A DNA stretch of 64,000 bases, taken from Bacteroidota bacterium. Lineage in GTDB: Bacteria > Bacteroidota > Bacteroidia > Bacteroidales > WCHB1-69. Below are positions 1 to 43,377 of the stretch, piece after piece; positions within the stretch are counted from its first letter, which is position 1, and each line of letters begins with the position of its first letter. The stretch spans positions 20,275-84,274 of the forward strand of contig JAEZOU010000005.1 of the NCBI GenBank assembly GCA_023413895.1, in the 5' to 3' direction. The translations under genes were made by a program, and so were the position numbers. The notes beneath the pieces were generated by a model. The model was not told the origin of the DNA, did not search any database, and saw only the letters and a program-made list of their open reading frames with translations.

Positions 1-1504
1 GCAGTAGTATGGAGTGTGCAATGTTGGAAATAGTCGGTGCTGGTGAACATTCGTTGTGAAGTTTCATCTGATAGTAGTAACTGTGGTTATTCACGTCAAC
101 GTCGTTGTCAATATAAGTATATTGGGAACCTCCATTGTAAGCTATTGTGGTAATGAATTGAAGGTTTTGGCCATTATCGCAACTTCTATATAAGTCAATA
201 TGTGAAAAAGGTGTTTCTCCACCGCTTGTAAGAGCTTGAATTCGAATTTGTCGATTATCTTCTACAGAAACAGAACTAATATAGGCGTAATCATGGTTTT
301 CTTCAGCAGTAAAGGTAAAGTTAACCTTGCGTGAGTCTGCTGTAAATAGTCCATTGTTGCTGACAGCTCGCACGATAAAGGTGTAGTCCCTGTCTGGAAC
401 TAAGTTGGAATGTGTATAGGTAGTTGTATTAGCAGAAACTTCTCCCGAGTATTGTAAGGCACCTCCATCTTCAGAAAAGTAAATTTCATATTTTTCTAAC
501 CCATCAGTCATGTTAATATAGTGTGTCCACGATAATGATGCTTTTCTTGTGCAACCATCAGTGGTACAGTGTAATAGTATGTTTTGCTGAGGGTCAAATA
601 TCATTCCACTAGCATTGCCACAGCTGTCTCGCGCCGAAATTCTGTAATGATTTACAATGTCTGAACTATGTAGCGAGTCAGTCCAAGTAGTGGTAGAAAT
701 TCCATATACGGTATCTATAGCTACCCAAGGGGCATTTTCTGTTTCTTGATGGAATATGACGTATGAATTTACGTCATTGTCCTCCGACTCCTCCCACGAA
801 AGCGTAATCATATCGCTTGTATAATCAACGGTAACTTGGTGAAGGGTAGGAATATGTGGAGCAATAAGGTTCTGAAAATGCTCCGTCGAGATGGTCGATG
901 CGTTTTGACAAACGTTTCCGCCCTGCGGCGCGAAAAATTGATCGGAAAGATGTATTCGATAACGAACATCTGCATCACAAATTTCAATAGTGTCCCTAAA
1001 ACTAAGGTTTCCAGGATATGTGATGCTTCCAACAGAACGAAATTCAATGTCGTTAGGGTGTTTCCTCATTACTCTAAAAACATTACTTGTAGTTGGAAGT
1101 AATTCTGTAGCTGGAGCATTCCAATTGATGATAGCTGTGCCATCGCCAGGGTTGGTAATGTTGCTAAAAATGGTTTGTAACGTGTCAGAATTGTAACTAT
1201 TGCCCTGAAAAATAGCTTTGATAAAATAGTATTTGTGAATGATAGGGTCAACTCCATCAAAGCAGTCGGTGTTGGCTGTGGTCATATTGTTATTAATTAC
1301 TTGATAGGGACCAGCAACTTGATCTGCATAGTAAACTTCGTAGCGAATGAAGTTTGATGAATCAGCAATAGGAACAAAATAGAGGGAAACACCATTGCCA
1401 TCTTCTTTTACATGTACACAGCGTAATTGTGGAGTTTGCGTACTTTGTGCAAATAGATAGAAGGTGAAAAATATGATGATGGTAATAAGGAATGATTGTT
1501 TCAT
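1..1504 (-). CDS. Secreted FN3-repeat surface protein, N-terminal 501 codons (C-terminus lies beyond the left window edge)
   Basis: My own translation of the minus strand is open from ATG 1504-1502 down to base 2. It is absent from the ORF track because it has no in-window stop. The N-terminus MKQSFLITIIIFFTFYLFAQ is a signal peptide. Repeated beta-rich modules (ITLSWEESEDNDVNSYVIF; ASLSWTHY..YEIYFSEDG..YTFIVRAVS) look like fibronectin type III. The start lies 6 nt after the stop of the upstream gene. Confidence 0.75.
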   Translation of the reverse strand, partial: MKQSFLITIIIFFTFYLFAQSTQTPQLRCVHVKEDGNGVSLYFVPIADSSNFIRYEVYYADQVAGPYQVINNNMTTANTDCFDGVDPIIHKYYFIKAIFQGNSYNSDTLQTIFSNITNPGDGTAIINWNAPATELLPTTSNVFRVMRKHPNDIEFRSVGSITYPGNLSFRDTIEICDADVRYRIHLSDQFFAPQGGNVCQNASTISTEHFQNLIAPHIPTLHQVTVDYTSDMITLSWEESEDNDVNSYVIFHQETENAPWVAIDTVYGISTTTWTDSLHSSDIVNHYRISARDSCGNASGMIFDPQQNILLHCTTDGCTRKASLSWTHYINMTDGLEKYEIYFSEDGGALQYSGEVSANTTTYTHSNLVPDRDYTFIVRAVSNNGLFTADSRKVNFTFTAEENHDYAYISSVSVEDNRQIRIQALTSGGETPFSHIDLYRSCDNGQNLQFITTIAYNGGSQYTYIDNDVDVNNHSYYYQMKLHNECSPAPTISNIAHSILL

Positions 1505-1510
1505 GAGATG

Positions 1511-2785
1511 TTAATGTTTGCCAACGATAATGGTGAATATGGTTTCTCTCTGCAAATAACGATTCGCAAGAGATATGATTGTTTGAGGGGAAATCTTTTT
1601 TATTGTATCAAAAAGTTGTCCCATCTCCTCTTCGTTCAACCCAAATTTATGCCATCTTATATAAGTTCTCATATATGATGTGATACCATCTACAGAACGG
1701 AGGTAGGCACCAGATAAATACGTTTTTAATGTTGATAGTTCTTCATCGCAAATTTCTTCTGTTTGCAGGCGCCTTATCTCTTCGAAACAAGCTTCAATTG
1801 ATTCGTCTGCTTTCCCTTCTATAATGTCGCTTTCAATGAAGAATATTGAATGGTCGCAAATATATGAGTTTTCACTATAAATACTATAGGTGTAGCCACA
1901 TTCTTCTCGTACTTTCTGCATTAGTCTTGAACCGAAATATCCTCCTAATAGTGTGTTTAGTATGTTGAATTCCCTTCTATCTGTGTGATTGTAATCAAAT
2001 AGTTTTTTGTAAAGTAAAATAGTAGATTGCAAGGAGTTTTCCCTAGGTTCGTAGATGAACTGTTCACACTGAGTTCGAAGTGTTGTGGTGGAAATAATTG
2101 GAGTGTCGTTCTTGGAAAGTTGTTGAAAGGTTTGTACAATGGTGTGTGTCTCCTCATCTTCAATGTTTCCTGCTGCAAAAATATTTATTCGGTTAGCTTG
2201 GAATACTTGTTGATGATACTCTTTTAAGTTATCAATAGAAAGATTTTCAATGTGTTCTCTTTTTAATGGTGTTCCAAGAGGGGTGCCTGGTTGATAGATG
2301 TTTTTCAACATTAATTGGGAGGCAATATAACTGTTTTTTCGAATGTTATATTCTAAGTTTTTAATCTTACTTTTTTTGAAATCTTCAAAGTTCTCGCTAC
2401 TAAATGTGGGATTTGCAATGGTTTCAATAATGATAGGATAGACCTTGTTGAAGTTTCTTTTGGGAATGATGAGCTCTATCGTTGCATTTTGTATGTTTAT
2501 GCTTGTATTCCACGAAGAACCATAGTAGTCCAAAAGTTGATCCATCTTCTCTTTGGGATATTGTGAAGAGGATTCTTTCAGAAAAGAAAATAGGGCTTGT
2601 GCAACATATTTCGTAGACTCATAAATTCTGCCTCCAGCTACTTCAATGGTGATATGAAGCAAGTCTAAGTGCTTGTCTCTGAATATGTATAATGAACTAT
2701 CTCCGTGAAGAGAGATGACTTGGGGGGTAGGAAGTGAAACCTGAGTTATGGGAGTTGATTTTGGGGCTTCTTTTCTATTAATCAT
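1511..2785 (-). CDS. M16 (pitrilysin/insulinase) family peptidase-like protein, apparently non-catalytic
   Basis: 424-aa ORF with two-lobe M16-like organisation (IFAAGNIEDEE.., LLGGYFGSRLMQKVREECGYTYSIYS). Where HxxEH is expected the sequence reads AGGRIYESTKYVAQALFSFLKES, so the zinc motif is not visible. Confidence 0.6.
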   Translation of the reverse strand: MINRKEAPKSTPITQVSLPTPQVISLHGDSSLYIFRDKHLDLLHITIEVAGGRIYESTKYVAQALFSFLKESSSQYPKEKMDQLLDYYGSSWNTSINIQNATIELIIPKRNFNKVYPIIIETIANPTFSSENFEDFKKSKIKNLEYNIRKNSYIASQLMLKNIYQPGTPLGTPLKREHIENLSIDNLKEYHQQVFQANRINIFAAGNIEDEETHTIVQTFQQLSKNDTPIISTTTLRTQCEQFIYEPRENSLQSTILLYKKLFDYNHTDRREFNILNTLLGGYFGSRLMQKVREECGYTYSIYSENSYICDHSIFFIESDIIEGKADESIEACFEEIRRLQTEEICDEELSTLKTYLSGAYLRSVDGITSYMRTYIRWHKFGLNEEEMGQLFDTIKKISPQTIISLANRYLQRETIFTIIVGKH

Positions 2786-2866: not shown

Positions 2867-3760
2867 TTATTTGATAAGATTGATGGAGCCCTTTTTCATC
2901 TGACGTTCGCCATCTGTAGTCCGGTATATTATAACATATATGTATGTGCCTTGCGGCATGATGTTTCCTCGATATTCACCATTCCATCCTATCTGAATAT
3001 CTTTGCTTCGGAATAAGATAGAACCCCTCCTGTCTGAAATTATCATTTCAAAATCTATAATCTCTTCTAAACTTTGAGCTAAAAATATGTCGTTTAAGCC
3101 ATCTCCATCGGGTGTGAATGCATTCGGAATGAAGAGCACCTTTCTCTCTTCTGGAATCTCTTCAAAAAGTGGTTCCTCCTCTGGTTGTACATACTCCTCT
3201 TCGGTATTCTGTTGTGTAGGTTCGACCACAACGGTTTCTATTTTACGCTTTACTGGTTGTTGGGTAGGTTGTGCTGAAGCTATCTTTACTGGTTCTGTTT
3301 CTACTATACGTTTTTGTACAACTTTGGGCTCTGTAATTGGAGATTCAATATCCTTTTGGGAAACTAAATTAGTTGAAGATGATACGGAAGATTGAGTCTC
3401 TCTATTTTCAATAGCAACCTCGATTCGGGTTTCTTTCTCTTTTGATAGGGAAATGGGGGTGCTTTCAGAAGAATCGCTTGAAAAGTTTGATGTTGGGGCA
3501 GAAGAAACTACGTTTTTAGTTGTGTTTTGTTGAACAATTAATGTATCGCCATCTTTTATGGTCTTGTTGGTATTAAGTAGAGAGATAAGTGTAGTTGCAG
3601 TAATAACAACAGCTATAGCCGTTCCAATAAGATAGACTTTTATTTTTTGCCAACGATTGAATTTTATTAACCGACGATCAGAGGCTATTTTTGCCCAACC
3701 ATCTGCAGGTGGCGTGTGATTTTGTCCTAACTCTTTTTTTATGTATTGCCCAATTTCCAT
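2867..3760 (-). CDS. Single-pass membrane protein with a C-terminal T9SS type-B sorting domain (CHU_C-like); candidate anti-sigma partner of the upstream ECF sigma
   Basis: Its ATG overlaps the sigma stop by 1 nt (TAATG). It has a ~40-aa N-terminal head, a TM helix IKVYLIGTAIAVVITATTLISLL and a long S/T/E/Q/P-rich linker. The C-terminus LFIPNAFTPDGDGLNDIF...GTYIYVIIY...KGSINLIK matches the gliding-motility C-terminal domain signature. Confidence 0.6.
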   Translation of the reverse strand: MEIGQYIKKELGQNHTPPADGWAKIASDRRLIKFNRWQKIKVYLIGTAIAVVITATTLISLLNTNKTIKDGDTLIVQQNTTKNVVSSAPTSNFSSDSSESTPISLSKEKETRIEVAIENRETQSSVSSSTNLVSQKDIESPITEPKVVQKRIVETEPVKIASAQPTQQPVKRKIETVVVEPTQQNTEEEYVQPEEEPLFEEIPEERKVLFIPNAFTPDGDGLNDIFLAQSLEEIIDFEMIISDRRGSILFRSKDIQIGWNGEYRGNIMPQGTYIYVIIYRTTDGERQMKKGSINLIK

Positions 3761-4344
3761 TATTCCTCTTCCTTTATCTTTTGTTTATGTAATCGCATTT
3801 CCTCATTTGATAGAAATTTCTCTATCTTTTCTTGTAAAATTCTTTTTGCTCTAGATAGCTGTGACCGTGAGTTGTTTGAAGAACATCCCAACATCTCTGC
3901 TATCTCGTCGTGTGAATAACCTTCAATCTCAAACAGGCTAAAAATAGTTCTATATCCTGGTGAAAGCTCTTGAATAAATTGATACAGAACTTCTGAAGGA
4001 ATAGATGGAAAATCTACATTGATAGAGTGCTCTATAATCTCATCTTCTAATTCAACGTTCTGACCATTTCGCTTGGAAACGATACTACTTCGGTATTTGT
4101 TGATGATAACGTTGATGCAAACCTTATGTAGCCATCCATTGAAAGAGTTATTCTCCTGAAAATTTTTAATGTACGTAAATATCCTGATAAAACATTCTTG
4201 AAATAGGTCTTCGGCATCTTCACGATTGTTGGAGTAACGCATACAAAGGTGCATTACAAGACCTGCATATTGGTCGTACAACGCTTTTTGGTGTTTCGAT
4301 TTCCCTTTCTGACACCCTTGTATGATTTCTACTTCTGTCATCAA
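3760..4344 (-). CDS. ECF-type RNA polymerase sigma-70 family factor
   Basis: 194 aa. Region 2-like DAEDLFQECFIRIF..WLHKVCINVIINKYR and region 4-like YRTIFSLFEIEGYSHDEIAEMLGCSSNNSRSQLSRAKRIL. Confidence 0.85.
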   Translation of the reverse strand: MMTEVEIIQGCQKGKSKHQKALYDQYAGLVMHLCMRYSNNREDAEDLFQECFIRIFTYIKNFQENNSFNGWLHKVCINVIINKYRSSIVSKRNGQNVELEDEIIEHSINVDFPSIPSEVLYQFIQELSPGYRTIFSLFEIEGYSHDEIAEMLGCSSNNSRSQLSRAKRILQEKIEKFLSNEEMRLHKQKIKEEE

Positions 4345-4397
4345 GATAATTTTGTAGGAAAAGACAACTTTTTGCGGAAAATGTTGCGCAAAATTTT

Positions 4398-4413
4398 TAT
4401 TTTTGCAAAAATA
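4398..4413. promoter_or_regulatory. Perfectly palindromic -7 element TATTTTTGCAAAAATA in the divergent sigma/mpg intergenic region
   Basis: It reads TATTTTTG (TAnnTTTG) on both strands. The plus-strand copy lies 22 nt upstream of the mpg ATG (4428). Confidence 0.4.
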
Positions 4414-6082: not shown

Positions 6083-7093
6083 ATGAGGTTGTTGAATAAT
6101 ATTTCTTTGAAGAATTATAATACTTTCTCGGTCGATGTGAAATGCGCCGATATGTATGTAGTGGAGAAAGTTTCTGATCTTCCTGATTTGGCCGCAATGC
6201 AAGTGTTTAACAATGAATTTCTTGTACTTGGTGGAGGTGCAAATGTGCTTTTTACAAGAGATTTTTCTGGCTATATTGTCCTGATGGAGAATAAGGGAAT
6301 TAAAAAAATGATGGAAGATGATAATTCTGTTACTCTGAGTGTGGCAGCCGGTGAGGATTGGAGAAATTTTGTAAAATATTGCGTTGATAATCTTTATTAT
6401 GGATTGGAAAATTTAGCAGGAATTCCAGGGAAAGTAGGAAGTAGTCCTGTACAAAATATCGGTGCATACGGTTCTGAAGTTAAGTCAGTTATCGAGAAGG
6501 TTTATTACTTCGATGTGGATTCAAAAACTTTTAAATCAATTGCTAATGAAGAATGTAACTTTGGCTATCGAGATTCAATCTTTAAAAAAGAACTGAAGTC
6601 AAAGGCAATTATAGTAGAGGTGGTTTTTAAATTGTCGAAAGTTCCAAATTTCAATCTTTCATATTCTGCTCTAAAAGATGCCGTAGAAAAGGAAAATATA
6701 GAATTGACATTGTCGAATTTGTATGAGTTAGTAATCAAAATTAGAGATTCTAAATTGCCTAATGTTGATGAGGTGGGGTCGGCTGGAAGTTTTTTTAAAA
6801 ATCCTATAGTTTCTCAATCTCAATATGAACAATTGTTAGTGAAATTTCCTAATTTAATTGCTTATCCCTATGCCTCAAAACAAGTGAAATTAGCTGCTGG
6901 TCAGTTGATTGATATGTGCGGTTGGAAAGGAATTCGCCAAGGTGATGCTGGCGTTTACCCTAAACAAGCGCTTGTCTTGGTTAATTATGGAAATGCAACC
7001 CCAGAAGATATTCTCAATTTATGCCGACAAATTCAACAAACGGTGCTCGATAAGTTTGGCGTACAAATTGAGCCTGAAGTGAATTTTATTTAG
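6083..7093 (+). CDS. murB: UDP-N-acetylenolpyruvoylglucosamine reductase
   Basis: 336 aa. NTFSVDVKCADMY, LVLGGGANVLF, GLENLAGIPGKVGSSPVQNIGAYG and GSAGSFFKNP are typical MurB motifs. Confidence 0.9.
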   Translation: MRLLNNISLKNYNTFSVDVKCADMYVVEKVSDLPDLAAMQVFNNEFLVLGGGANVLFTRDFSGYIVLMENKGIKKMMEDDNSVTLSVAAGEDWRNFVKYCVDNLYYGLENLAGIPGKVGSSPVQNIGAYGSEVKSVIEKVYYFDVDSKTFKSIANEECNFGYRDSIFKKELKSKAIIVEVVFKLSKVPNFNLSYSALKDAVEKENIELTLSNLYELVIKIRDSKLPNVDEVGSAGSFFKNPIVSQSQYEQLLVKFPNLIAYPYASKQVKLAAGQLIDMCGWKGIRQGDAGVYPKQALVLVNYGNATPEDILNLCRQIQQTVLDKFGVQIEPEVNFI

Positions 7094-8000
7094 TGGTTTT
7101 TTGAAATTGTAATTTAATAGGGCCTTCTCCTAAGTTGCCATCTTTGAATTCTAATACAACGTGTGCCTCTTTCCGCTTGTTCCCACGTTTGCTCTCGTAG
7201 AATGTGGCAGAAATGCCAATTCCTTTCCATAATCTTGCAGCAACCTCTCCTTGTTGCGAAATAGCATACATTAAATCGTAATCACTATCACTGTCGTTAA
7301 TAATGTCATTTTCATATTGAGAATATAATTTGATTTCAGGCATTTGTAAACATTTTATTTCAGGGTCACTATTGTAAATAGCTATAGATCGCATATCTTG
7401 CTGGTTGATAGAGTAGTTGATATGCCCTAATAAGCCTTCGGCAAGTGTCGCTGAGTCCTGATTGATCTGATAACCCAAGAATATAACTTTCATCGTGCTA
7501 GGAATGACAATCTTATGATAACGCTTGTTGCAAATTAAGAAGGTTTCGTTACTAGGAAAGGTTGAAAGTTCATAGTAAGTGGGATTGTCGCAGCAACCAT
7601 AATTCGCAGCAATTAAGTAGTTTTCCTTCAGCTCAAAAATTTGAGTCGCTTTTGAATAACTAAATGCTGATGCTTGATCGTAATCTGGAAAAATAGTGAG
7701 CGTTACTTGATAGCTTTTGTCGTGTGAGACGTGATGCAACCATTCTGATGCTATAGTTTTACTTTTTATCAGGCAAGGAATCCTTGTCCCATTTTGAGTT
7801 TGATAATGAGAAAATTTGTAAGAGATAATGGTGCCTGATGCTAATAAATCCCCATTGTCGTTTTGCTCAATTTTAAAGCGAGATACACACGAATCGTTCA
7901 TTAATTGTGTGTATGAATTATTCACAACTTGTGCATTGAGCTTGACAAATAATGAAATTGTTAAAAGTGAAAATGTGTAAAATAGTCCGCCTATTCTCAT
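7086..8000 (-). CDS. Hypothetical secreted protein
   Basis: 304-aa ORF with an N-terminal hydrophobic signal (FYTFSLLTISLFVKLNAQ). I recognise no motif. Its 3' end overlaps murB convergently by 8 nt. Confidence 0.5.
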   Translation of the reverse strand: MRIGGLFYTFSLLTISLFVKLNAQVVNNSYTQLMNDSCVSRFKIEQNDNGDLLASGTIISYKFSHYQTQNGTRIPCLIKSKTIASEWLHHVSHDKSYQVTLTIFPDYDQASAFSYSKATQIFELKENYLIAANYGCCDNPTYYELSTFPSNETFLICNKRYHKIVIPSTMKVIFLGYQINQDSATLAEGLLGHINYSINQQDMRSIAIYNSDPEIKCLQMPEIKLYSQYENDIINDSDSDYDLMYAISQQGEVAARLWKGIGISATFYESKRGNKRKEAHVVLEFKDGNLGEGPIKLQFQKTTK

Positions 8001-8165: not shown

Positions 8166-11100
8166 ATGAAATACTATTTAAGATTCCTATTCTTATTAAT
8201 CTTTCTTCTGGGATTGGTTCCAACTTTCTCCCAATCATTTTCTACATTAAGAAAAAAGAAGATTGTTGCCGAAGAGATGATGATTAAGGTAGATTCTTTG
8301 GTAGTGTTGGAGAATAGTTTTGCAATAGATAATCTTAATGATTCTTTATACGATTTTGATTGTATAACTGCAATCCTTACTTTGAAGGATTCTTCCCTCC
8401 TTCATCAATCTTTATCTTGCCGTTATCGAATTTTTAATCCTAAGCTAAAAATATTTAATAGCCATAAGTCAATAAATACTATTCATGCTTATTCAGCTGT
8501 CTATAAACCTAAATTTGTAGAGATTTCTCCCTTTATAGATACAGAAACAGGGTCCTCTGTTATCACTTCCGGTTCTATTTCGCGTGGCTTTTCAGTTGGA
8601 AATAATGTGGATTTCGGACTCTCATCTTCTCTAAATCTGCAATTGTCGGGATTGCTTGCCCCAGATTTGAAAATTACTGCTAATATTACAGATAAAAATG
8701 TGCCAATCCAACCAGAAGGAAATACGCGTACAATACAAGATTTTGATCGCGTATTTATTAATCTTAATTACAAAGATCAATTGATTTTAGATGCTGGAGA
8801 TGTTGTTTTACATAATCCCGAAAACTATTTTCTGAAAATGAATAAAAAGATATTGGGCTTCTCTTTCTCCTCTAATCAAAAGGTTAATAATAAGTTTAAT
8901 TTAAAAAATAGGGTAGGAGGCGGAATCTCTAAAGGAAAGTTTTTTCGTCAAAGGTTAACGGTAGTTAATGGTATTCAAGGCCCGTATCGCTTAACAGGTC
9001 CCTATACGAGTGCGTCTCTTATCATCTTGTCAGGTTCTGAAAAAGTATATGTGGATAATAAACTATTGACACGAGGTGCCGATGCAGATTATGTTATTGA
9101 TTATAACACAGGAGAAATTACTTTTACTCCCAACGTTCTAGTTACAAATGAGAAAGAATTTAATGTGGAGTATGAGTATTCTGATAATGCATACGCACGT
9201 TATTCCCTATTTTCCTTCAATGAGTGGTCTTCCATTGAAAATCCTAAACTGAAATTGTATGCAAACTATTTCAGAGAACAAGATTTGAAAAATCAATCTT
9301 TTTTCCCAGAGCTCTCTAATGAGATGAAACTTTTCCTTTCGCAACTAACCCCTAATGAGCTACCACTTTTTCCTAATGTGGATTCTGTTCCCTATTCCGC
9401 AAATGAAATCCTATACGAGTTAATAGATACTACGATAAATGGACTTACATATTCAATTTATCAATACTCAACTCAGCATTCTGCCCAATTGTTCCGCGTG
9501 GGTTTCCTATATGTCGGGGAAAATAAAGGCGATTACCAATTGGTAAATTCATCTGCTAATGGACGTGTTTTCGTTTGGGTAGCACCCTCAAACGGAATTC
9601 CACAAGGAAGTTATAATCCTGTAATGCTTTTAAATAAACCCATCTCATCTCAAATGGGTGTGGTGGGAATGCAGTATGATTTCGCAAAATATAGCGGACT
9701 CGCCCTAGAAGCAGCGTTATCAGGACATAATGCCAATACCTTTTCTCATTCGAAAGAAAATCGTCAAATTGGGTATGCACTGAAATTTAATTTCTATCAC
9801 AAAAACCCACTAAAAAAAAGATTTGAAAAACAGGTTTGGTGGTTTCATACTCAGTTACAAGGAGAGTTCCTTAATAAAAATTTTTCTCACTTTGAAAGTT
9901 TTCGAAGTGTTGAGTTTTATAAGGATTATAATCTTAATTCAGATTTTGCAGCATCTCACCATGAATTACTAATTAATTATTTGGCAGGATTTCAGAATGA
10001 TAAAGTGGGGAAAACAGAATATAAAGCCAATTATTATTCACGTTTGGGACTCTATCGTGCATTGAAAAATGAACTCAACTCCTCTACTCATGTGAATGGT
10101 TTTCTATTCTCAACAAAAACTTCTCTCCTAAATACGGCTGATTCACTCTATAATACTACTTATATTCGTTCTGTCAACAATTTATCTCAACAGTTTGCAA
10201 GTCTACAGTTGGGTGCGTATGAACGTTTTGAATTGAATCGGTACATAAATGCTCATTCTGATACTTTAATGTCTAATAGTTTTCTATACAATGAAGCTTC
10301 TCTTTTTATTAAAAATGCAGATTCAATAAAAAATCAATTTTACTTGGGATATACACATATCTTACGGAAAAGACCTGAAAATCTACATCTTGCAAAGAAT
10401 GAGTCTTCTCATCAAGCACAACTGCAATTTGATATTTTTAAGGTGATGAATAGTCGATTTAAAGGAATCGTAACTTATCGAAATTCACAAATCCAGGATT
10501 CTTTGGGTGTGATGAATCCTGAAAATTATTTTACCGGAAGTTTAGACTATTCTGGAAGATATCTGAAAAATGCTTTGATTCTTTCTACATATTATGAGGC
10601 AGGAAGTGGAATGGAACAGAAAAAACAATTCTCCTTCATTAAGGTCTTAGATGGACAAGGAACACACGTTTGGAACGACTACAATAATAATGGTGTTGAA
10701 GAAATTAATGAGTTTGAAATTGCTGCATTTCAAGATCTGGCTAATTATGTAAAAGTATGGATTGCCTCTAATGATTTTATTAATACATATAATACTCAAT
10801 TTACTCAAAAAATCCAATTTAGACCCGCTAATTTGTGGAGACATAAAAAAGGATTTCTAAAGTTCCTCTCCCGTTTCTCAGATGTTGCTTCTCTTAGAAT
10901 TGCCCAAAAGAATATAATTCCTACCCTCCTTAAAGCATTAAATCCATTTAATTTTGATATAGAAGATTCTAACGTAGTAAGCAGTAATTTGAACTTTATA
11001 AATACACTTTCTTTTAACCAAAATTCCTCTATCTGGGGGGGCGATTATACATATAAAATCCTCCACAATAAGGTGTTGAATTTTTATGGTTCAGAGGCAA

Positions 11101-11624
11101 GTTCTACAATTTATCATGACCTTCTCTGCCGAGTAAAACCGATTAATCCCCTTTTGTTGAAATTTAATTACATTTACGATTGCTCTAAAAGACTCTCCTC
11201 AACCTTTCAAATCCAAAATTTTACTATTGTATCCCATACGGCAGTGATCTCAATGCTCGTTAATCATTCTAAACCTGTAGATTGGTCTGTACAATATCTA
11301 TTCTCTTGGCAAAAAAATTTGGTAGGTGAGGAAAAAAATCTAAAAAATTCTGTAAGGTTTGATTTGAATTATCGTTTGGCAAGAAAAGGTGTTGTTGGGG
11401 TCCGACTCCAATATCTCAATTTGAATTTTTTAGGAGATGAAAATATGAATGTAGCTTATCAAATGCTAGAAGGTTTTCAAAAGGGACATAACCTCTCTTG
11501 GGGTATAAATATGCAAACTAATTTGTCGGAATTTTTGCAGTTAGAACTTAAATATGAAGGAAGAGTTTCTCAGCATTCAAAAATTATTCATTTGGGAATG
11601 TTGCAAGTAAAAGCTCACTTCTAA
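8166..11624 (+). CDS. Large outer-membrane protein of unknown function (predicted beta-barrel)
   Basis: 1152 aa. It has a signal peptide MKYYLRFLFLLIFLLGLVPTFSQ and no later long hydrophobic helix. The sequence is rich in N/S/Y/F beta-strand-like segments. The C-terminus ...IIHLGMLQVKAHF has an alternating hydrophobic pattern and a terminal Phe, as in OM beta-barrels. Confidence 0.6.
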   Translation: MKYYLRFLFLLIFLLGLVPTFSQSFSTLRKKKIVAEEMMIKVDSLVVLENSFAIDNLNDSLYDFDCITAILTLKDSSLLHQSLSCRYRIFNPKLKIFNSHKSINTIHAYSAVYKPKFVEISPFIDTETGSSVITSGSISRGFSVGNNVDFGLSSSLNLQLSGLLAPDLKITANITDKNVPIQPEGNTRTIQDFDRVFINLNYKDQLILDAGDVVLHNPENYFLKMNKKILGFSFSSNQKVNNKFNLKNRVGGGISKGKFFRQRLTVVNGIQGPYRLTGPYTSASLIILSGSEKVYVDNKLLTRGADADYVIDYNTGEITFTPNVLVTNEKEFNVEYEYSDNAYARYSLFSFNEWSSIENPKLKLYANYFREQDLKNQSFFPELSNEMKLFLSQLTPNELPLFPNVDSVPYSANEILYELIDTTINGLTYSIYQYSTQHSAQLFRVGFLYVGENKGDYQLVNSSANGRVFVWVAPSNGIPQGSYNPVMLLNKPISSQMGVVGMQYDFAKYSGLALEAALSGHNANTFSHSKENRQIGYALKFNFYHKNPLKKRFEKQVWWFHTQLQGEFLNKNFSHFESFRSVEFYKDYNLNSDFAASHHELLINYLAGFQNDKVGKTEYKANYYSRLGLYRALKNELNSSTHVNGFLFSTKTSLLNTADSLYNTTYIRSVNNLSQQFASLQLGAYERFELNRYINAHSDTLMSNSFLYNEASLFIKNADSIKNQFYLGYTHILRKRPENLHLAKNESSHQAQLQFDIFKVMNSRFKGIVTYRNSQIQDSLGVMNPENYFTGSLDYSGRYLKNALILSTYYEAGSGMEQKKQFSFIKVLDGQGTHVWNDYNNNGVEEINEFEIAAFQDLANYVKVWIASNDFINTYNTQFTQKIQFRPANLWRHKKGFLKFLSRFSDVASLRIAQKNIIPTLLKALNPFNFDIEDSNVVSSNLNFINTLSFNQNSSIWGGDYTYKILHNKVLNFYGSEASSTIYHDLLCRVKPINPLLLKFNYIYDCSKRLSSTFQIQNFTIVSHTAVISMLVNHSKPVDWSVQYLFSWQKNLVGEEKNLKNSVRFDLNYRLARKGVVGVRLQYLNLNFLGDENMNVAYQMLEGFQKGHNLSWGINMQTNLSEFLQLELKYEGRVSQHSKIIHLGMLQVKAHF

Positions 11625-11775: not shown

Positions 11776-11934
11776 AGGCTAAATTTTTTTGGCAATTTTT
11801 TGCGGTTTGTAACATTTGAAAAGAAAATCAGTATAAGGAAAAAGATAGGGAATAAAGACTTTTTTCAATAGTTATAAATTGTTGATTGTCAGTAATGTAG
11901 AAGATAAAAATAAAGTTGAAAAAAATATAAGAGA

Positions 11935-12981
11935 ATGAGAAAAGTATTAGCAGTTTTACTCCTTTTCACATTTAGCTTCTTGAGTGTAAATGCGCAAGAA
12001 GATGCTCAATTTACGTTATTTCCTTGGGCACAGTTGTATTATAACCCTGGTTCTGCAGGTGAACAGCACAATACTTTGTGCTTTACTGCTATGTTCCGCC
12101 AACAATACTTAGGCTATAAGGATGTTTGGGTTCCAGATCAAGTTACTGATGCTACTACTCCCGAAGGTTTGCAAACTTTAAATACAGGAGGACAACAGTT
12201 GATGCTCAATATTGAAACCTATTTACGTAAACTTCATGGTGGTATCGGACTTTCTGTTGTTAAGGATAAAAATGGTATCTTCGATAACATCGGTGTTCGC
12301 CTAGGTTACTCTTACAAAGTAAATCTTCCTGTCGGTCGATTAGGTATCGGTTTTCAAGTTGGATTTTTAAACCAATCTATTGATAAAGAGGTGTATAGAC
12401 CATTGCAGCCAGGTGACCCAATTATTGAATTACTGAAAAATAATGAGTCATTTATGAATCTTGACTTTAATGTTGGTCTATATTATAAAGCTCCTACTTT
12501 CTATGTGGGACTTTCTGCTACCCAATTGGCTACATCTATCAGGTTATCAGGCGATAATACGGTATTGAATCCATCAAGAAACATGTATATTCATGGTGGT
12601 TATATTTGGACTATTCCTTGGGATCCAGCATGGAGTATTGAACCTCAGGCAATGGTGAAAACAAATTTCGCAACTGCACAGTTCGATTTGATGCTTTTAG
12701 CTCGTTACAATGGAATCTTATGGGGCGGTTTATCCTATCGTTTAGATGATGCTGCTTCTATTTTATTTGGTGCTCGCCCATTTTATAATAGCTCTAATGT
12801 GTATATGAAAGGTTTAGATATGGGATTGTCATATAGCTTTACAACCAGTAAATTAGGATATAAGAAACATAGAAGTTTTGGAGATATTGAATTGGTAGTA
12901 CGTTACTGCTTCGATATATACAAACCTGAAGTATTTACAGGTTATGGTTCAACAAGAAATATTTATAAGAATCAATATTAA
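11935..12981 (+). CDS. porP: T9SS membrane protein PorP/SprF family
   Basis: 348 aa. A signal peptide is followed by QEDAQFTLFPWAQLYYNPGSAG (conserved PorP/SprF N-terminal motif), with beta-barrel-like composition. It lies directly upstream of gldK, as porP-porK does in Porphyromonas. Confidence 0.8.
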   Translation: MRKVLAVLLLFTFSFLSVNAQEDAQFTLFPWAQLYYNPGSAGEQHNTLCFTAMFRQQYLGYKDVWVPDQVTDATTPEGLQTLNTGGQQLMLNIETYLRKLHGGIGLSVVKDKNGIFDNIGVRLGYSYKVNLPVGRLGIGFQVGFLNQSIDKEVYRPLQPGDPIIELLKNNESFMNLDFNVGLYYKAPTFYVGLSATQLATSIRLSGDNTVLNPSRNMYIHGGYIWTIPWDPAWSIEPQAMVKTNFATAQFDLMLLARYNGILWGGLSYRLDDAASILFGARPFYNSSNVYMKGLDMGLSYSFTTSKLGYKKHRSFGDIELVVRYCFDIYKPEVFTGYGSTRNIYKNQY

Positions 12982-13028
12982 AATATATTCTGAAAATTAT
13001 CGTTCTTCAATAAAATAAACTGAAAAAC

Positions 13029-14450
13029 ATGAAAAGATTTGCATTATTCTTATGGATCGCTTTAGTCGTTGCATCTTGTGCAAATACTGGCGATGGTCAA
13101 TTGGTAGGTGTTAAAGAGCGCCCAGAATTTTTGGACCTTAATCCTTTTGGTATGGTTTATATCCCTGCTGGACACTACTTGATGGGTGCTGGTGACCAAG
13201 ATGTACCATACGCTTTGACCCACCAATCTAAAAACGTTACAGTTGTAGCGCTTTGGATGGACGAAACAGAAATTACTAACAATGAATATCGCCAATTTGT
13301 TTATTGGGTGCGTGATTCTATTGCCCATTGTTTATTAGGTGATGCCGAAATTACAGATGAGGAAAAATATGGTCACTACCTAAAATATGATAAAAATTCA
13401 GAATATGAAGGCGAAGTAATTGAACCTAAATTAATTAATTGGAAAGAAGAGATTCCTTGGGATTCCCAAAATGAGGAAGTGGTGGCAGCCTTAAGTCCTC
13501 TTTTCAATCAAACAAATACACGTTTCTACCACTATCGTCCTAATGCATTAAATGTAGGTATGCTCAATTATGAGTATTGGACTTACGATTTAAGTAATTT
13601 TAAAGATCCAAAAGATCCAGATAATTACGGTGCTGCTGTAAAAGAGAGCGAAGGTAGCGATTTAGGTGGTCTTTATGCTAATCGTCCAAGCCACTTTAAT
13701 AATGGTTACGAAAGATTCTTCCGTAGAGATGTCGTAAATATTTACCCTGATACATTGTGCTGGAATCATGATTTTACATACTCTATGAATGATCCGATGA
13801 CTTTAAACTATTTCTCTCATCCACAATTTGACCACTATCCCGTAGTTGGTGTAAGTTGGCGTCAAGCTAAAGCATTCTGTTATTGGAGAACACACTTAAG
13901 ACATGCTTATCTTACAGAGAAAGAGTTTGCTAATGAACAAGAGTTTAGACTACCTACTGAAGCTGAATGGGAATGGGCTGCACGTGGTGATATGGATGCT
14001 AACCCTTATCCTTGGGGCGCTTATTATACTCAAAATGCTAATGGTTGTTTCCTCGCTAATTTTAAACCTCAAAGAGGAAATTATATTGCTGACGATAACG
14101 TATATCCTGCTATTGTAGCGCATTACCATCCTAATGATTTCAACCTATTTGATATGGCTGGAAATGTTGCAGAATGGTGTAGTGATGCATTTGATAAATC
14201 ATCAGTTAACTTCACGCACGATTTGAATCCTGCTTACAACTATTATGCAAGCAAGACAGATTCTCGTGAAAAGAAAAGAAAAGTAATTCGTGGTGGATCT
14301 TGGAAAGATATTAGCTACTACAACACTGTATATGCAAAAACTTTCGAATATCAAGATACTTGTAACTCATACGTAGGCTTCAGATGCGTTCAAAGCTATA
14401 TGGGCCGTCAACGTGGTGATTCTCAAAAGCAAGCATCTCACCTATACTAG
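13029..14450 (+). CDS. gldK: T9SS/gliding lipoprotein GldK (PorK)
   Basis: Lipoprotein signal LVVASC. FGE-sulfatase-like motifs MVYIPAGHYLMG, WMDETEITNNEYRQFVYWVRDS and RGGSWKD. Confidence 0.92.
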   Translation: MKRFALFLWIALVVASCANTGDGQLVGVKERPEFLDLNPFGMVYIPAGHYLMGAGDQDVPYALTHQSKNVTVVALWMDETEITNNEYRQFVYWVRDSIAHCLLGDAEITDEEKYGHYLKYDKNSEYEGEVIEPKLINWKEEIPWDSQNEEVVAALSPLFNQTNTRFYHYRPNALNVGMLNYEYWTYDLSNFKDPKDPDNYGAAVKESEGSDLGGLYANRPSHFNNGYERFFRRDVVNIYPDTLCWNHDFTYSMNDPMTLNYFSHPQFDHYPVVGVSWRQAKAFCYWRTHLRHAYLTEKEFANEQEFRLPTEAEWEWAARGDMDANPYPWGAYYTQNANGCFLANFKPQRGNYIADDNVYPAIVAHYHPNDFNLFDMAGNVAEWCSDAFDKSSVNFTHDLNPAYNYYASKTDSREKKRKVIRGGSWKDISYYNTVYAKTFEYQDTCNSYVGFRCVQSYMGRQRGDSQKQASHLY

Positions 14451-14504
14451 AAATCAATAATTAAATCTATAAACAAACAAATCATTAACTAAAAAAAATT
14501 AATT

Positions 14505-15227
14505 ATGGGACTTTACAATTTAGTAAGATCTAAAGGTTACAAAAACTTTATGGCTAAGCTTTACGGAATTGGAGCTGCAGTCGTTATCTTGGGTGCATTA
14601 TTTAAGATTCTTCACCTTCCAGGTGCAAACGCAATGCTTATCGCAGGTATGGGTACAGAAGCTATTATCTTCGTTTTTTCAGCTTTTGAACCACTTCACG
14701 TTGAGTACAATTGGGCATTAGTTTATCCAGAATTGGCAATTGGTAATGAAGAAGAATTAAAACCAGTTACTAAAAAAGCAAAAAAAGAAGCTCCTACAGG
14801 AACTGTTACACAACAACTAGACAAGATGCTTGAGGAAGCTAAAATTGGACCTGAATTAATCGAAAGTTTAGCTACAGGAATGAGAAACCTTAGTGAAAAT
14901 GCCAAAAAAATCTCTGGTACTGCTGATGCTGCAGCTGCAACAGATGGTTATATCGCTAATCTTACTAAAGCTGGCGAAAAGGCAAAAGATCTTTCTGTTC
15001 AATATGAAAAGACAACTAATGCATTGATGAGCCAACAACAAACTTCAGATGTTATTGCATCTAGCACTAAACAAATGGAGCAAACTGTAAAAGCTTATGC
15101 TGAATCATTGAACGCATCTCTTCAAAATACTATGAAGTATCAAGAAGAAGTTAATAAATTGACTCAAAGCGTACAAAAAATCAGCAGTATTTACGGAAAT
15201 ATGTTGGCTGCAATGAGCGGTAAATAA
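14505..15227 (+). CDS. gldL: T9SS/gliding motor protein GldL (PorL)
   Basis: 240 aa. Two N-terminal TM helices (LYGIGAAVVILGALFKILHLPG; MLIAGMGTEAIIFVFSAFEP) are followed by a helical cytoplasmic tail. It sits between gldK and gldM. Confidence 0.9.
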   Translation: MGLYNLVRSKGYKNFMAKLYGIGAAVVILGALFKILHLPGANAMLIAGMGTEAIIFVFSAFEPLHVEYNWALVYPELAIGNEEELKPVTKKAKKEAPTGTVTQQLDKMLEEAKIGPELIESLATGMRNLSENAKKISGTADAAAATDGYIANLTKAGEKAKDLSVQYEKTTNALMSQQQTSDVIASSTKQMEQTVKAYAESLNASLQNTMKYQEEVNKLTQSVQKISSIYGNMLAAMSGK

Positions 15228-15274
15228 TATTTTCTACTTATTCATCTAATTACTAACTAAAAAAATAATACAAT

Positions 15275-16885
15275 ATGGGTGCATCAAATTGTCCGGAAAC
15301 CCCCCGGCAGAAGATGATAGGTATGATGTATTTGGTACTTACCGCTATGTTGGCGTTAAATGTATCCAAAGACATTTTGAATGCCTTTTCTATTATCGAT
15401 GAATCTTTAGCAAGTTCTACAAATATTACTGAAAGAACAATCTCTTCTGATGATAGTTTTTTGTCTAAACAAGAAGCACTTTTAGGAAAAGCAAAGGTCG
15501 AAGGTGCTATTAAAAAAGTTGCGGAAATCAAGACATTGTCTGATAAAATGGTAAAAGAAATTGAAGAGATTCGTAAGGGCTTATTAATAGCTGTAGATGG
15601 GACTGAGAAAAATTCAAAAGGAGAATTAAAAACAGTAGGCGAAATTAATTCTAAAGATGATACCAGTGGACCAACCAACTTTTTAATTAACGAAGGTCGT
15701 GCAAAAAAGCTAAAAGATGCTTTGTTGAAATATCGTAAAGCAATGCTTGACTTAGCAAATGATGGTACAAGAGAGCAACTTAATACAGCAATTGGTCTTC
15801 AAGTTGATGCTGATTATCATAATGCTGAAGGAGCAAAAGAAACATGGGAAGATCACTGCTTCAATGGAACTATTATGGCTGCTAGCGTTACTTTGCTTAA
15901 TAAGTTAGTAGGTGAAGTACGTAATGCTGAGTCACTTCTTATTAAAGATGCTATCGCTGGTATTAATGCAGAAGACTTTAAGTTTAGTAAAGTTGAAGGT
16001 CGTGCAATACCTAAATCACAAATGGTATTCTCTGGTGATGCTTACGAAGCAGATATTATCGTTGCTGCATTTGATGAAAAACAAGCACCTGAAGTTTATT
16101 ACAAAATGAATGTTGATACTTTAACAAGTATTGAAGGTGCAGAAAAATTGGAAGGTGAAAATGGTATTGCTAAGTTGAAAATTCCTACTGGTGGAGCAGG
16201 CGATTTTAAATTTGCAGGTATCATTAGAATCGTCGGCCCAGATGGAACTCAAAAAGAATATGGATTTGCTGACAAATATACAGTACTTCCTCCATCAGCT
16301 ACAGTAGCTGCTGAAAAAATGAATATGTTCTATGCTGGCATTGAAAACCCAGTATCAGTGAACGCTCCTTGTGCTCCTGATAAAATTAATGTTACTATGA
16401 CAGGTGGTGGTACTATCACCAAAACAGGTCCTGGAACCTATAATGTTACAGTTCCTGCTGCATTAAGAGGTAAAACTGTTACCGTTAATGTTTCTGCTGA
16501 CTTAGGTGGAGGTCCAAAACAAATGGGAAGCACAGTGTTCCGTGTAAGAACCGTTCCAGATCCTGATGTTTCTATCGGTGGTACGATTAGAGGTGGTAAA
16601 ATTCCAAAAAGTAGAATCTCCGCAGGCAATGGTTTCGTTGCAGCTAAAATGGATGAGAGTTTTGCTTATGATTTGAAATGGGCTGTTAACTCTTTCCGTG
16701 TTACTTTCGTAACAAAAGGTATTGAAGATGCTCCAATTGCAGTTCAAGGCAACAAATTCACCAATAATATTTTGGATAAAATCAAAAAGTCTCCTAAGGG
16801 TACTGCTGTTTATATCACTGATATTAAAGCGTCATCTCCAGCAGGTCAACGTACTTTGAAGGATATTTCAATCCGTCTAAACTAA
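15275..16885 (+). CDS. gldM: T9SS/gliding protein GldM (PorM)
   Basis: 536 aa. TPRQKMIGMMYLVLTAMLALNVSKDILNAF is the conserved GldM N-terminal TM motif, followed by a long periplasmic region. Confidence 0.92.
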   Translation: MGASNCPETPRQKMIGMMYLVLTAMLALNVSKDILNAFSIIDESLASSTNITERTISSDDSFLSKQEALLGKAKVEGAIKKVAEIKTLSDKMVKEIEEIRKGLLIAVDGTEKNSKGELKTVGEINSKDDTSGPTNFLINEGRAKKLKDALLKYRKAMLDLANDGTREQLNTAIGLQVDADYHNAEGAKETWEDHCFNGTIMAASVTLLNKLVGEVRNAESLLIKDAIAGINAEDFKFSKVEGRAIPKSQMVFSGDAYEADIIVAAFDEKQAPEVYYKMNVDTLTSIEGAEKLEGENGIAKLKIPTGGAGDFKFAGIIRIVGPDGTQKEYGFADKYTVLPPSATVAAEKMNMFYAGIENPVSVNAPCAPDKINVTMTGGGTITKTGPGTYNVTVPAALRGKTVTVNVSADLGGGPKQMGSTVFRVRTVPDPDVSIGGTIRGGKIPKSRISAGNGFVAAKMDESFAYDLKWAVNSFRVTFVTKGIEDAPIAVQGNKFTNNILDKIKKSPKGTAVYITDIKASSPAGQRTLKDISIRLN

Positions 16886-16901
16886 TTAAAAATATATTGT
16901 C

Positions 16902-24836: not shown

Positions 24837-24934
24837 AATAAAAAGTTTTAGTAAAACGAAATCAATCAGCAATAATAGCAAAAAAATCTTTACCTTTATC
24901 CATTGGGTGATGTTTTTTATGTGAAAAAATACAC

Positions 24935-43294: not shown

Positions 43295-43377
43295 CTTGAT
43301 ATTTTATTAGAATAACTTGTTTTCTTTTCTCTTATTTTATAGTCTGAAACATTTTTTTTATAGGAATGTTGCATCTC

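Follow-up and report, generated by a model that had tools for sequence, protein, structure and literature searches.

A 64,000-nucleotide stretch of a Bacteroidota contig (the window) contains an ECF sigma gene followed directly by a gene for what is very probably an anti-sigma factor of the Dma kind, in which a T9SS type-B C-terminal sorting domain (CTD) stands in place of the usual barrel. An earlier note on this DNA held the design to be unprecedented. The arrangement of head, TM helix, tether and outer-membrane module is in fact that of the Dma/Reo anti-sigma factors, which were described in 2024 as a novel link between the cell surface and transcription (PMC10927553), and the part of the claim that stands is the direct fusion of a type-B CTD to an anti-sigma factor, which is apparently undescribed. 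The Dma family includes Dma1/Das1 and Dma2/Das2 of Bacteroides thetaiotaomicron and Reo/EcfO of B. fragilis and Phocaeicola vulgatus. On balance we also lean towards the fuller statement that the protein is a Dma-like anti-sigma factor whose CTD is engaged by T9SS, and the variant may link gene control to the secretion machinery in this bacterium, an uncultured member of the Bacteroidales from gut or rumen.

Coordinates of the features are collected in Table 1. Both open reading frames lie where the earlier note placed them (3760..4344 and 2867..3760). The ATG at 4341 is the codon right after the listed TTG and yields a product beginning MTEVEII, in agreement with the sigma orthologues. On the coding strand the junction between the two genes reads GAATAATGGA, and the one-base overlap described previously was seen, base 3760 being common to the TAA stop and the ATG of the partner. 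The sigma protein matches Sigma70_r2 (59.7 bits), Sigma70_r4_2 (60.9 bits) and TIGR02937 (103.6 bits) and consists of regions sigma-2 and sigma-4 only, in about 190 aa, which places it among the ECF (group 4) sigma factors. It scores below the curated cut-offs of NF058625, the PG0214/GFO_1088 ECF family (83.8 vs 130 bits), and of TIGR02985, Sig70_bacteroi1 (92.2 vs 126.4 bits). Sigma factors adjoining Dma-type proteins, which combine a head with a beta-barrel, share 36-43% identity with it (130-132 bits), whereas the window's second ECF sigma scores only 34.6 bits; the sigma factor is a putative member of the ECF21 group, to which the sigma factors of the Dma family belong.

Table 1. Features of the sigma/anti-sigma cluster and associated promoter-like sites (positions are those of the window).
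Feature	Position	Strand	Remarks
Signal-peptide fn3-repeat protein, fourth cluster gene	1..1504	minus	5' part, 501 codons, runs off the window
M16-family protein, third cluster gene	1511..2785	minus	inactive M16_C domain only, no signal peptide
Anti-sigma partner gene	2867..3760	minus	297 aa
Partner-gene stop codon	2867..2869	minus	
T9SS type-B C-terminal sorting domain (CHU_C / TIGR04131)	2870..3133	minus	residues 210-297
Disordered periplasmic tether	3134..3571	minus	residues 64-209; from pLDDT and composition
Single TM helix, N-in	3572..3640	minus	residues 41-63; from hydropathy, positive-inside rule and model helix
Anti-sigma head, predicted to be cytoplasmic and sigma-binding	3641..3760	minus	residues 1-40
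ECF sigma gene	3760..4341	minus	193 aa counted from ATG; start in the ORF list is TTG 4344
ECF-type promoter-like site GCAAC-N17-GTC	4363..4387	minus	22 nt ahead of sigma ATG
Match to primary-sigma -7 box (TAnnTTTG, Bacteroidota)	4406..4413	minus	TATTTTTG, upstream of sigma gene
Candidate second promoter GCAAC-N17-GTT	43348..43372	minus	54 nt upstream of type-B cargo gene 40424..43294

Profiles, hydropathy and an AlphaFold2 model bear out the four-part partner described previously, with a head, one TM helix, a linker and a C-terminal module. There is a single hydrophobic segment (maximum Kyte-Doolittle value 2.26 over 19 aa), and five of the 15 residues preceding it are Lys or Arg. Helices are modelled at residues 3-11, 22-26 and 29-67, the last one continuous, while residues 67-206 have a pLDDT of ~30, within a low-complexity stretch at residues 64-209. 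This tether of ~146 aa is rich in T, S, E, P and Q, has a net charge of -9 and would measure about 53 nm at full extension; tethers across the family have a median length of 147 aa (range 65-219). The position, length and conservation of the hydrophobic segment, which follows a conserved, basic-flanked head, support a signal anchor over a cleavable signal peptide, a choice that the earlier note had posed. Searches of Pfam and NCBIfam at E<=1 gave no ZAS (zf-HC2), RskA or FecR anti-sigma domain in the partner, and outside the CTD the only family match at this threshold was a meaningless one of 8.5 bits. Neither the profiles nor the model revealed a passenger domain N-terminal to the CTD, this region consisting of disordered linker only.

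The C-terminal module, which the earlier note had assigned from the sequence alone, proved to be a canonical type-B CTD that passes the cut-offs of both CHU_C (PF13585; 62.1 bits against a cut-off of 27, residues 210-295) and TIGR04131 (54.1 bits against 35, residues 211-296). Residues 210-297 are modelled as a beta-sandwich with a pLDDT of ~90, and an eight-stranded outer-membrane barrel (OMP_b-brl_2) is absent, both from the profile matches and from the model. The two cargo genes named in the earlier note (40424..43294 and 57818..60604) do carry CHU_C/TIGR04131, and these bona fide cargo of the window score 54.3 and 37.8 bits with TIGR04131, compared with the 54.1 bits of the anti-sigma CTD. 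The residues that are invariant in the family lie in the hallmark blocks PNAFxPxxDGxND, GW(N/D)G, GxYxY and KGxxxLI(R/K), and conserved type-B motifs are needed for secretion (PMC12618676). A Foldseek search of the partner model against the PDB returned generic Ig-like, PKD and fn3 matches only. The closest CTD in the window is that of cargo 40424..43294 (34/90 identical). The idea that the anti-sigma CTD mimics that of the neighbouring fn3 cargo was dropped; the two are identical at 28/89 positions and the fn3 CTD has no DGxND block.

The head connects the partner to the Dma systems. Its motif, in one to six copies, also begins TM proteins that end in an OMP_b-brl_2 outer-membrane beta-barrel; the head profile matches the heads of these proteins with E values of 1e-14 to 1e-16, and they too sit directly after ECF sigma genes. 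Further relatives of the window sigma likewise have partners bearing the head motif. Neither the head nor Dma-type proteins are represented by a model in NCBIfam. Residues 1-40 of Dma1 pull down Das1, and Dma1 spans both membranes and undergoes proteolytic processing (PMC10927553). By analogy, the head of the partner would bind the sigma factor and hold it at the inner membrane. With Dma the partner shares a head of ~40 residues, one TM helix, a long disordered periplasmic tether and a distal module destined, presumably so in the partner, for the outer membrane (PMC10927553), as well as an anti-sigma gene placed right after the ECF sigma gene and a restriction to Bacteroidota. Head and sigma are homologous to those of barrel-ended systems, the B. 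thetaiotaomicron and B. fragilis proteins themselves being compared by description. In contrast to Dma, the partner ends in a type-B beta-sandwich in place of the eight-stranded OMP_b-brl_2 barrel, its linker is shorter than the Dma tether, and the nigD genes found with Dma are replaced in its cluster by genes for an M16-like protein and an fn3 cargo. As the distal module is a T9SS sorting domain, its arrival at the outer membrane would depend on T9SS and not on BAM.

The head profile recovers 289 cluster representatives, and at least 71 protein clusters (at 50% identity) have the combination of head, TM helix, linker and CTD, with all 71 matched by TIGR04131. This sizeable family lies behind one generic database label, its members being named only [quoted passage not shown]. 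In each of nine distinct loci (the window, L091, L092, L006, L005, L001, L003, L009 and L130) an ECF sigma gene lies immediately upstream of the family member, overlapping it or within 42 nt. The gene pair is conserved well beyond chance, and the sigma/anti-sigma reading put forward previously is supported. When contigs were scanned with the full-length alignment, the CTD motifs dominated the outcome: the 79 loci obtained were generic CHU_C loci, with L009 as the sole family member. Seven of the nine loci contain a four-gene cluster of sigma, anti-sigma, M16-like protein and fn3 type-B cargo, and in L130 its genes are separated by 3-9 nt. Orthologues of the M16-like gene come after that of the anti-sigma factor in L091, L092, L006, L001, L009, L003 and L130, and full-length orthologues of the fn3 protein have 691-697 aa and a divergent type-B CTD at the end. 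A DNA glycosylase gene is likewise conserved beside the four-gene cluster, so part of the synteny may be inherited and not functional. The M16-like protein was considered as a periplasmic site-1 protease, an idea that was rejected because it lacks a signal peptide and contains only an inactive M16_C domain.

Elsewhere in the window, 8 kb from the sigma/anti-sigma cluster, is a T9SS core operon, porP-gldKLMN (11935..17834), in which porP matches TIGR03519 at 174.7 bits, gldK scores 515.7 bits, and gldL, gldM and gldN are also present. The genome carries both type-A and type-B T9SS cargo. The gene at 28875..30248 encodes an RseP-like protein with Peptidase_M50 and PDZ domains, as the earlier note had identified it; an RseP homologue is to be expected in any Bacteroidota genome. 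These T9SS genes, the type-B cargo in the operon and the RseP homologue lend circumstantial support to the proposal of that note that the CTD is a bait which, when pulled, leads to regulated intramembrane proteolysis. A T9SS surveillance mechanism of this sort is plausible by analogy with PorA-PorY-SigP.

In our preferred explanation, the 40-residue cytoplasmic head would hold the sigma factor at the inner membrane and the disordered tether would cross the periplasm, presenting the sorting domain at its far end. T9SS, through the SprA translocon and a PorP/SprF-type shuttle, would recognise the CTD, and the far end would depend on T9SS for its capture at, or transfer into, the outer membrane; the state of the tether would therefore report T9SS engagement. 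Release of the sigma factor would take two cuts, first one in the tether and then one within the membrane, made by the RseP homologue, and the sigma factor would go on to drive its own operon of sigma, anti-sigma, M16-like protein and fn3 type-B cargo. The direction of signalling, for which operon content is the sole guide, can be suggested only tentatively: a T9SS that engages and pulls the CTD would switch the operon on, with a logic like that of FlgM/sigma-28, so that cargo would be made when it can be exported. Sigma binding, engagement of the tethered CTD, proteolysis, the sign of the signal and the regulon are all presumed steps of this scheme. Several observations run counter to T9SS engagement. 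T9SS substrates are normally free periplasmic proteins, no PorP/SprF-type shuttle gene adjoins the pair (in the window, only the gldKLMN operon has one, as its first gene), and the shortest linkers of the family (65 aa) may not reach through the outer membrane. Moreover, PorA tethered artificially to the inner membrane still signals in P. gingivalis but is not displayed at the surface (PMC7712824, PMC12152298).

A bolder version, which we consider possible though doubtful, is that T9SS possesses its own secretion checkpoint, in which the anti-sigma factor, anchored in the inner membrane, would be a T9SS substrate in its own right. Capture of the CTD by a working translocon, a shuttle or the moving gliding track would then strain and expose the tether, leading to regulated proteolysis, release of the sigma factor and expression of the type-B cargo operon. 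If this were true, a tether to the inner membrane would not keep T9SS from acting on a substrate, and Bacteroidota would own a FlgM-like logic built from Dma parts. For the T9SS field the variant poses the question of whether the translocon can handle substrates that remain anchored in the inner membrane.

The same parts would also serve an alarm in the manner of sigma-E, with a sign opposite to licensing: the CTD would normally be taken up or parked by T9SS, and when T9SS is absent or jammed it would linger in the periplasm and be degraded, releasing sigma. The sensing of unassembled OMPs by RseA/DegS, the classical envelope model, offers a parallel. In the PorA feedback model signalling likewise rises as T9SS operation falls (PMC7712824), and the resting state of Dma is the full-length tethered protein (PMC10927553). 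We nevertheless consider such an alarm unlikely, as the sole conserved, presumably co-transcribed outputs are T9SS cargo and a cytoplasmic M16-like protein, the cluster contains no T9SS component or chaperone, and it would be counter-intuitive to raise cargo output during a failure of secretion. There is a similarly low probability that the CTD merely docks the distal end of a static trans-envelope tether, as in Dma/Reo, with outer-membrane or surface damage or a tether-cutting protease as the stimulus and not T9SS activity. The homology of head and sigma to Dma-type systems, the long acidic T/S/P-rich linker, which is an obvious protease target, and the proposal that Dma/Reo are outer-membrane stress sensors (PMC10927553) fit this reading, but it leaves unexplained both the type-B cargo in the cluster at 7/9 loci and the replacement of a barrel by a secretion signal.

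It is quite unlikely that the CHU_C beta-sandwich is a T9SS-independent periplasmic sensor that binds a ligand or a protein, for example the fn3 protein. Although the CTD of PorA exerts its effect in the periplasm through PorY, to which it binds, and does so also for an unexported PorA tethered to the inner membrane (PMC7712824, PMC12152298), and the Foldseek matches are generic Ig-like folds only, a co-opted sensor would not need the full TIGR04131 match and hallmark sorting motifs kept by 71/71 representatives, nor would an inner-membrane sensor need a long disordered tether. It is highly improbable that the partner is simply a small T9SS cargo with a cleaved signal peptide and an incidental sigma neighbour, as its database name might suggest. 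The 23-residue hydrophobic segment begins only at residue 41, after a conserved head and a basic juxtamembrane stretch, the head is homologous to those of proteins paired with related sigma factors, there is no passenger to export, and the sigma gene is adjacent in all nine loci.

To our knowledge, T9SS regulation is understood only in Porphyromonas (PorXY-SigP-PorA), and the variant points to a different and more direct coupling of cargo expression with secretion in other Bacteroidales. A periplasmic regulatory signal from a T9SS CTD to an ECF sigma pathway has already been published for PorA-PorY-PorX-SigP, where the sorting domain has this second role and feedback on T9SS function has been proposed (PMC7712824, PMC12152298). 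In contrast to the system described here, in which a type-B CTD is covalently part of an anti-sigma factor, PorA is free cargo that loses its signal peptide and bears a type-A CTD; it is confined to Porphyromonas and acts through a two-component system with no anti-sigma factor. The resemblance to FlgM/sigma-28 is one of logic only, in that the sigma controls late substrates of a secretion machine and the anti-sigma factor bears the export signal of that machine; FlgM is soluble and wholly exported by the flagellar T3SS, with no homology, membrane anchor or proteolysis. With RseA/sigma-E (DegS, RseP) the partner shares a single-pass N-in topology, presumptive regulated intramembrane proteolysis and an RseP homologue in the window, and with both RseA/sigma-E and FecA-FecR-FecI a signal that would arise at the outer membrane. 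It differs from RseA and FecR in lacking a ZAS, RskA or FecR domain and in having a head far shorter than class I anti-sigma domains, and from the RseA and FecA-FecR-FecI systems in uniting the sensor and an outer-membrane-directed element in one polypeptide. Like canonical type-B cargo (e.g. SprB with SprF) it has a CTD that passes the TIGR04131/PF13585 cut-offs and keeps the conserved motifs, but it has no cleavable signal peptide, passenger domain or adjoining PorP/SprF-type shuttle gene. With a defined secretion signal, known receptors and known loss-of-function motifs, the variant offers a clean experimental handle on sensing of the Dma/Reo type.

Two promoter-like sites precede the sigma gene. 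Judged by the known consensus, the distal one probably acts as a primary-sigma -7 box, and the TATTTTTGCAAAAA block also precedes the sigma orthologues of L006, L005 and L001. The proximal site is probably an autoregulated sigma-gene promoter: a GCAAC/GTAAC -35-like box is found upstream of the sigma gene in 10/12 sigma-group loci, including four Dma-like or related ones, and a (C/T)GT -10-like box lies 16-17 nt downstream of it in seven of these ten. The sigma and porP promoters of L091 and L092 are too similar (94-99% identical) for phylogenetic footprinting. Control of the T9SS core operon by this sigma factor, through a GYAAC-N17-GT site upstream of porP, was also considered and then downgraded, because the porP box is GTAAC and the sigma-gene box GCAAC. 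The porP box has the form GTAAC...(C)GTA in 29/29 divergent porP loci, whereas the sigma-group promoters have GCAAC in nine of the ten loci in which a box was found; porP is more likely to be under the control of a SigP-like sigma. Within the window, the M16-like gene has a sigma-A-type -7 box to itself, a point against the preferred explanation. A promoter scan of the window gave two extra oriented intergenic matches vs 0.17 expected (P=0.011), and the site ahead of cargo gene 40424..43294 is a weak lead to a second promoter of the sigma-gene type.

The protein encoded directly upstream of the probable anti-sigma gene is, by its domain content, an ECF sigma factor, matching Sigma70_r2 (59.7 bits), Sigma70_r4_2 (60.9 bits) and TIGR02937 (103.6 bits); it scores below the cut-offs of the Bacteroidota families NF058625 (83.8 versus 130) and TIGR02985 (92.2 versus 126.4). 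The codon after the listed TTG is an ATG at 4341, the likely start of the gene since orthologues begin MTE(V/A/E/K)EII. On the coding strand the junction of the two genes reads GAATAATGGA, with base 3760 common to the sigma TAA stop and the anti-sigma ATG, and the one-base overlap described in an earlier note is therefore confirmed. The GC content is 36.6%.

Features of the window discussed in the text
Feature	Position	Strand	Remarks
fn3 protein gene			signal peptide; starts six bases past the M16-like gene; incomplete, leaves the window
M16-like protein gene	1511..2785		downstream of the pair; 424 aa; only an inactive M16_C domain; no signal peptide
Anti-sigma ORF	2867..3760	minus	297 codons
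ECF sigma ORF	3760..4344	minus	194 codons; listed start TTG
GCAAC-N17-GTC	4363..4387		downstream of the -7 box, 22 nt ahead of the sigma ATG
Primary-sigma-type -7 box	4406..4413		TATTTTTG; upstream of the sigma gene
ORF	7086..8000	minus	304 aa; signal peptide; no Pfam/NCBIfam family
1152-aa protein gene	8166..11624	plus	signal peptide; directly upstream of porP; beta-barrel-like end ...LQVKAHF; no Pfam/NCBIfam match
porP promoter site	11809..11833	plus	upstream of porP (11935)
porP, gldK, gldL, gldM, gldN	11935..17834		T9SS core operon; porP TIGR03519 174.7 bits, gldK TIGR03525 515.7 bits
ORF	22386..24881	minus	831 aa; no Pfam/NCBIfam family
LolB1-like lipoprotein insertase gene	39635..40414	minus	NF053559, 77.9 bits; directly downstream of the type-B cargo gene
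Type-B cargo gene	40424..43294
Second ECF sigma gene	47964..48518	plus
Single-pass protein gene	48565..49098	plus	177 aa; different, unrelated head
Signal-peptide protein gene	49116..49577	plus	153 aa
Type-A CTD cargo gene	62304..63863	minus	MAM + fn3 + Por_Secre_tail

The anti-sigma protein has a single transmembrane segment (residues 41-63 by hydropathy), and since the 15 residues ahead of it contain five Lys/Arg, by sequence criteria it is an N-in signal anchor and not a signal peptide. An AlphaFold2 model made from 12 family members places two short helices in the head, followed by one long helix (29-67), a stretch with pLDDT of about 30 (67-206) and a C-terminal beta-sandwich (210-297) with pLDDT of about 90. 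Abundant residues of the linker are E, S, T, V, K, Q and P; its net charge is -9 and its length at full extension would be about 53 nm. The terminal module gave the only matches in the domain search, CHU_C over residues 210-295 at 62.1 bits (cut-off 27) and TIGR04131 at 54.1 bits (cut-off 35). The earlier note had read a head, one membrane helix, an S/T/E/Q/P-rich linker and a type-B sorting domain (CTD); hydropathy, model and composition agree with this layout and the HMM scores with the identity of the module. Shortly past the membrane helix, on the predicted periplasmic side, a D-T-L at residues 72-74 (about 3539..3547, minus strand) fits the Bacteroidota general O-glycosylation motif D(S/T)(A/I/L/V/M/T).

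A word-indexed search recovered full-length relatives with the same four-part architecture down to 27% identity, and a profile of the head and transmembrane region only (67 positions), searched exhaustively at E<=1e-3, matched 289 cluster representatives. A CTD match is present in 73 of the best 150 of these 289; in 71 of the 73, which are 282-375 aa long, it extends to the C-terminus. All 71 match TIGR04131 (E<=1e-5) and have no other family in common, one further family matching 2/71; their T/S/E/P-rich linkers measure 65-219 aa, with a median of 147 aa. Named members stem from MAGs of uncultured Bacteroidales and bear the sole label [quoted passage not shown], and the closest relatives of the source organism are known only as metagenome assemblies. 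At the nine distinct loci compared (the window and, in other contigs, L091, L092, L006, L005, L001/L002, L003/L004, L009 and L130) an ECF sigma gene lies directly upstream on the same strand in 9/9 cases, the two genes overlapping by up to 8 nt or lying up to 42 nt apart; the pairing that the earlier note saw in the window is a recurrent one. Of 79 CHU_C loci retrieved at random, the family member L009 alone shows a transmembrane segment near residue 40, the others being ordinary cargo or truncated ORFs.

The other 77 of the best 150 (of 289) head-profile matches lack the CTD. At least 14 of the 77 terminate in an OMP_b-brl_2/OMP_b-brl beta-barrel, and none carries a type-A CTD. The shared head motif spans ~30 residues, roughly F-x-x-K-L-x-x-F-E-x-x-P-P-x-x-x-W-x-x-I, and many CTD-less matches have 2-6 tandem copies ahead of the membrane helix. 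Two barrel-ended proteins could be placed on contigs, both directly after an ECF sigma gene (4-nt overlap in L086, 9-nt gap in L087). The window sigma has 43% and 36% identity to the sigmas of these two loci (130-132 bits). It scores equally well against those of distant CTD-type loci (131-135 bits) and far lower (34.6 bits) against the second ECF sigma of the window. For sigma relatives from Mucilaginibacter and from a contig of 896 kb the next protein also matches the head profile; at a Cryomorpha locus the motif is recognisable by eye only.

Barrel-ended head proteins paired with an ECF sigma have the architecture by which the Dma family was defined, namely a short N-terminal head joined by a transmembrane helix and a long disordered tether to an outer-membrane barrel at the C-terminus, with an ECF sigma encoded alongside (PMC10927553). 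In Bacteroides thetaiotaomicron a pull-down of the ECF21 sigma Das1 needs no more than the first 40 residues of Dma1, and full-length Dma1 crosses both membranes and is processed into C-terminal fragments (PMC10927553); Reo/EcfO, the orthologues in B. fragilis and P. vulgatus, are thought to be outer-membrane stress sensors. The window system would work like these anti-sigma factors, and its head and sigma probably share ancestry with theirs, but since the defining C-terminal barrel is missing we leave it outside the Dma family. We found no mention of a T9SS-CTD version in the Dma papers or other literature searched, nor of tandem heads in the Dma papers. Tandem heads are seen in many Dma-type and unclassified relatives (for example the database proteins P0055, P0056, P0066, P0071, P0074 and P0102, and L087 2993..4882), and one such anti-sigma might hold several sigma molecules.

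Sigma, anti-sigma, M16-like and fn3 cargo genes follow one another in this order in the window, L091, L092, L006, L001, L009 and L130; L003 has the M16-like gene and L005 neither of the last two. Full-length orthologues of the fn3 protein (691-697 aa) end in a divergent type-B CTD. The tight spacing in L130 (a 4-nt overlap, then 3- and 9-nt gaps) indicates that the four genes form an operon. In three relatives (L091 14567..20885, L092 14612..18502, L006 8630..8908) rpmD-rplO-secY-map-infA-rpmJ-rpsM-rpsK-rpsD-rpoA follows directly, and the cluster thus borders the ribosomal spc/alpha block, into which the source genome probably continues left of window base 1. The organism has a T9SS, since the window holds the porP-gldKLMN core operon together with type-A and type-B cargo genes; the two type-B cargo genes and the rseP-like gene (an M50/PDZ RseP homologue) are present as noted earlier.

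The GCAAC-N17-GTC site ahead of the sigma gene fits a candidate autoregulated ECF promoter. A GCAAC-type -35-like box (once GTAAC) lies upstream of sigma in 10/12 loci of the sigma group, Dma-like ones included, with a (C/T)GT box 16-17 nt beyond in seven of those ten. Scanning the window with G[CT]AAC-N17-GT[ACT] gave 13 matches against 7.8 expected; in oriented upstream intergenic segments there were two apart from the seed, against 0.17 expected (P=0.011). One, with a GCAAC box and the same N17 spacing, precedes the tabulated type-B cargo gene, whose CTD is the nearest to that of the anti-sigma (34/90 identical). The other precedes porP, and GTAAC-N16/17-(C/T/A)GTA recurs at -118 to -134 in 29/29 porP orthologous loci (L095-L129, about 50% protein identity), a conserved ECF-type promoter with another -35 box than the sigma-gene promoters. 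In P. gingivalis the por genes are under SigP control (PMC7712824), and we therefore assign the porP site to a SigP-like sigma and discard it as regulon evidence for the window sigma; its conservation suggests that ECF-sigma control of porP-gldKLMN is widespread in rumen and gut Bacteroidales. At the Dma-type locus L086 a GCAAC-N18-GTT (2351..2376, minus strand) also faces the divergent gene of a 1184-aa type-A CTD cargo, a hint that this group of sigmas may have a wider role in the control of T9SS cargo genes.

Heads of the Dma1 1-40 type bind their cognate sigma, the T9SS recognises type-B CTDs, which then pass to PorP/SprF-type shuttles, and the usual fate of single-pass anti-sigma factors is removal through cleavage at site 1 and then by RseP. 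Conserved type-B CTD motifs are necessary for secretion (PMC12618676). We infer that the T9SS would capture the tethered CTD, that capture would alter the integrity of the tether, and that the sigma so freed would drive the four-gene operon. We tentatively favour a licensing direction, in which a working T9SS allows cargo to be made, because the conserved output is T9SS cargo itself; an alarm of opposite sign seems rather unlikely. Caution comes from tethered PorA, which was not surface-exposed in P. gingivalis, from the lack of a shuttle gene adjoining the pair, and from the shortest linkers of the family, which may not suffice to cross the outer membrane. A static tether of the Dma kind, responding to damage of the envelope, would sit well with the kinship of head and sigma, but does not account for a CTD in place of the barrel, and we consider it improbable to much the same degree as the alarm; a periplasmic sensor independent of the T9SS, which would have no need to retain a full sorting domain, is a little more doubtful still.

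Compared with type-B cargo, the anti-sigma genuinely carries the CTD class but lacks signal peptide and passenger domain. PorA-PorY-PorX-SigP is a precedent for a CTD reporting on the T9SS to an ECF pathway, but relies on a two-component system and on a type-A cargo that is free, and occurs only in Porphyromonas. The earlier note's view that the design is undescribed must be narrowed in the light of this system and Dma/Reo; an anti-sigma fused directly to a T9SS sorting domain, the size of the family and the cargo-containing operon do appear to be undescribed.

The type-A cargo gene in the table brings both CTD classes within 64 kb. The second sigma set (47964..49577) is an ordinary-looking sigma/anti-sigma system. 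The 1152-aa protein is kept in L091 (1152 aa) and L092 (1136 aa) and is a candidate unannotated outer-membrane T9SS partner.
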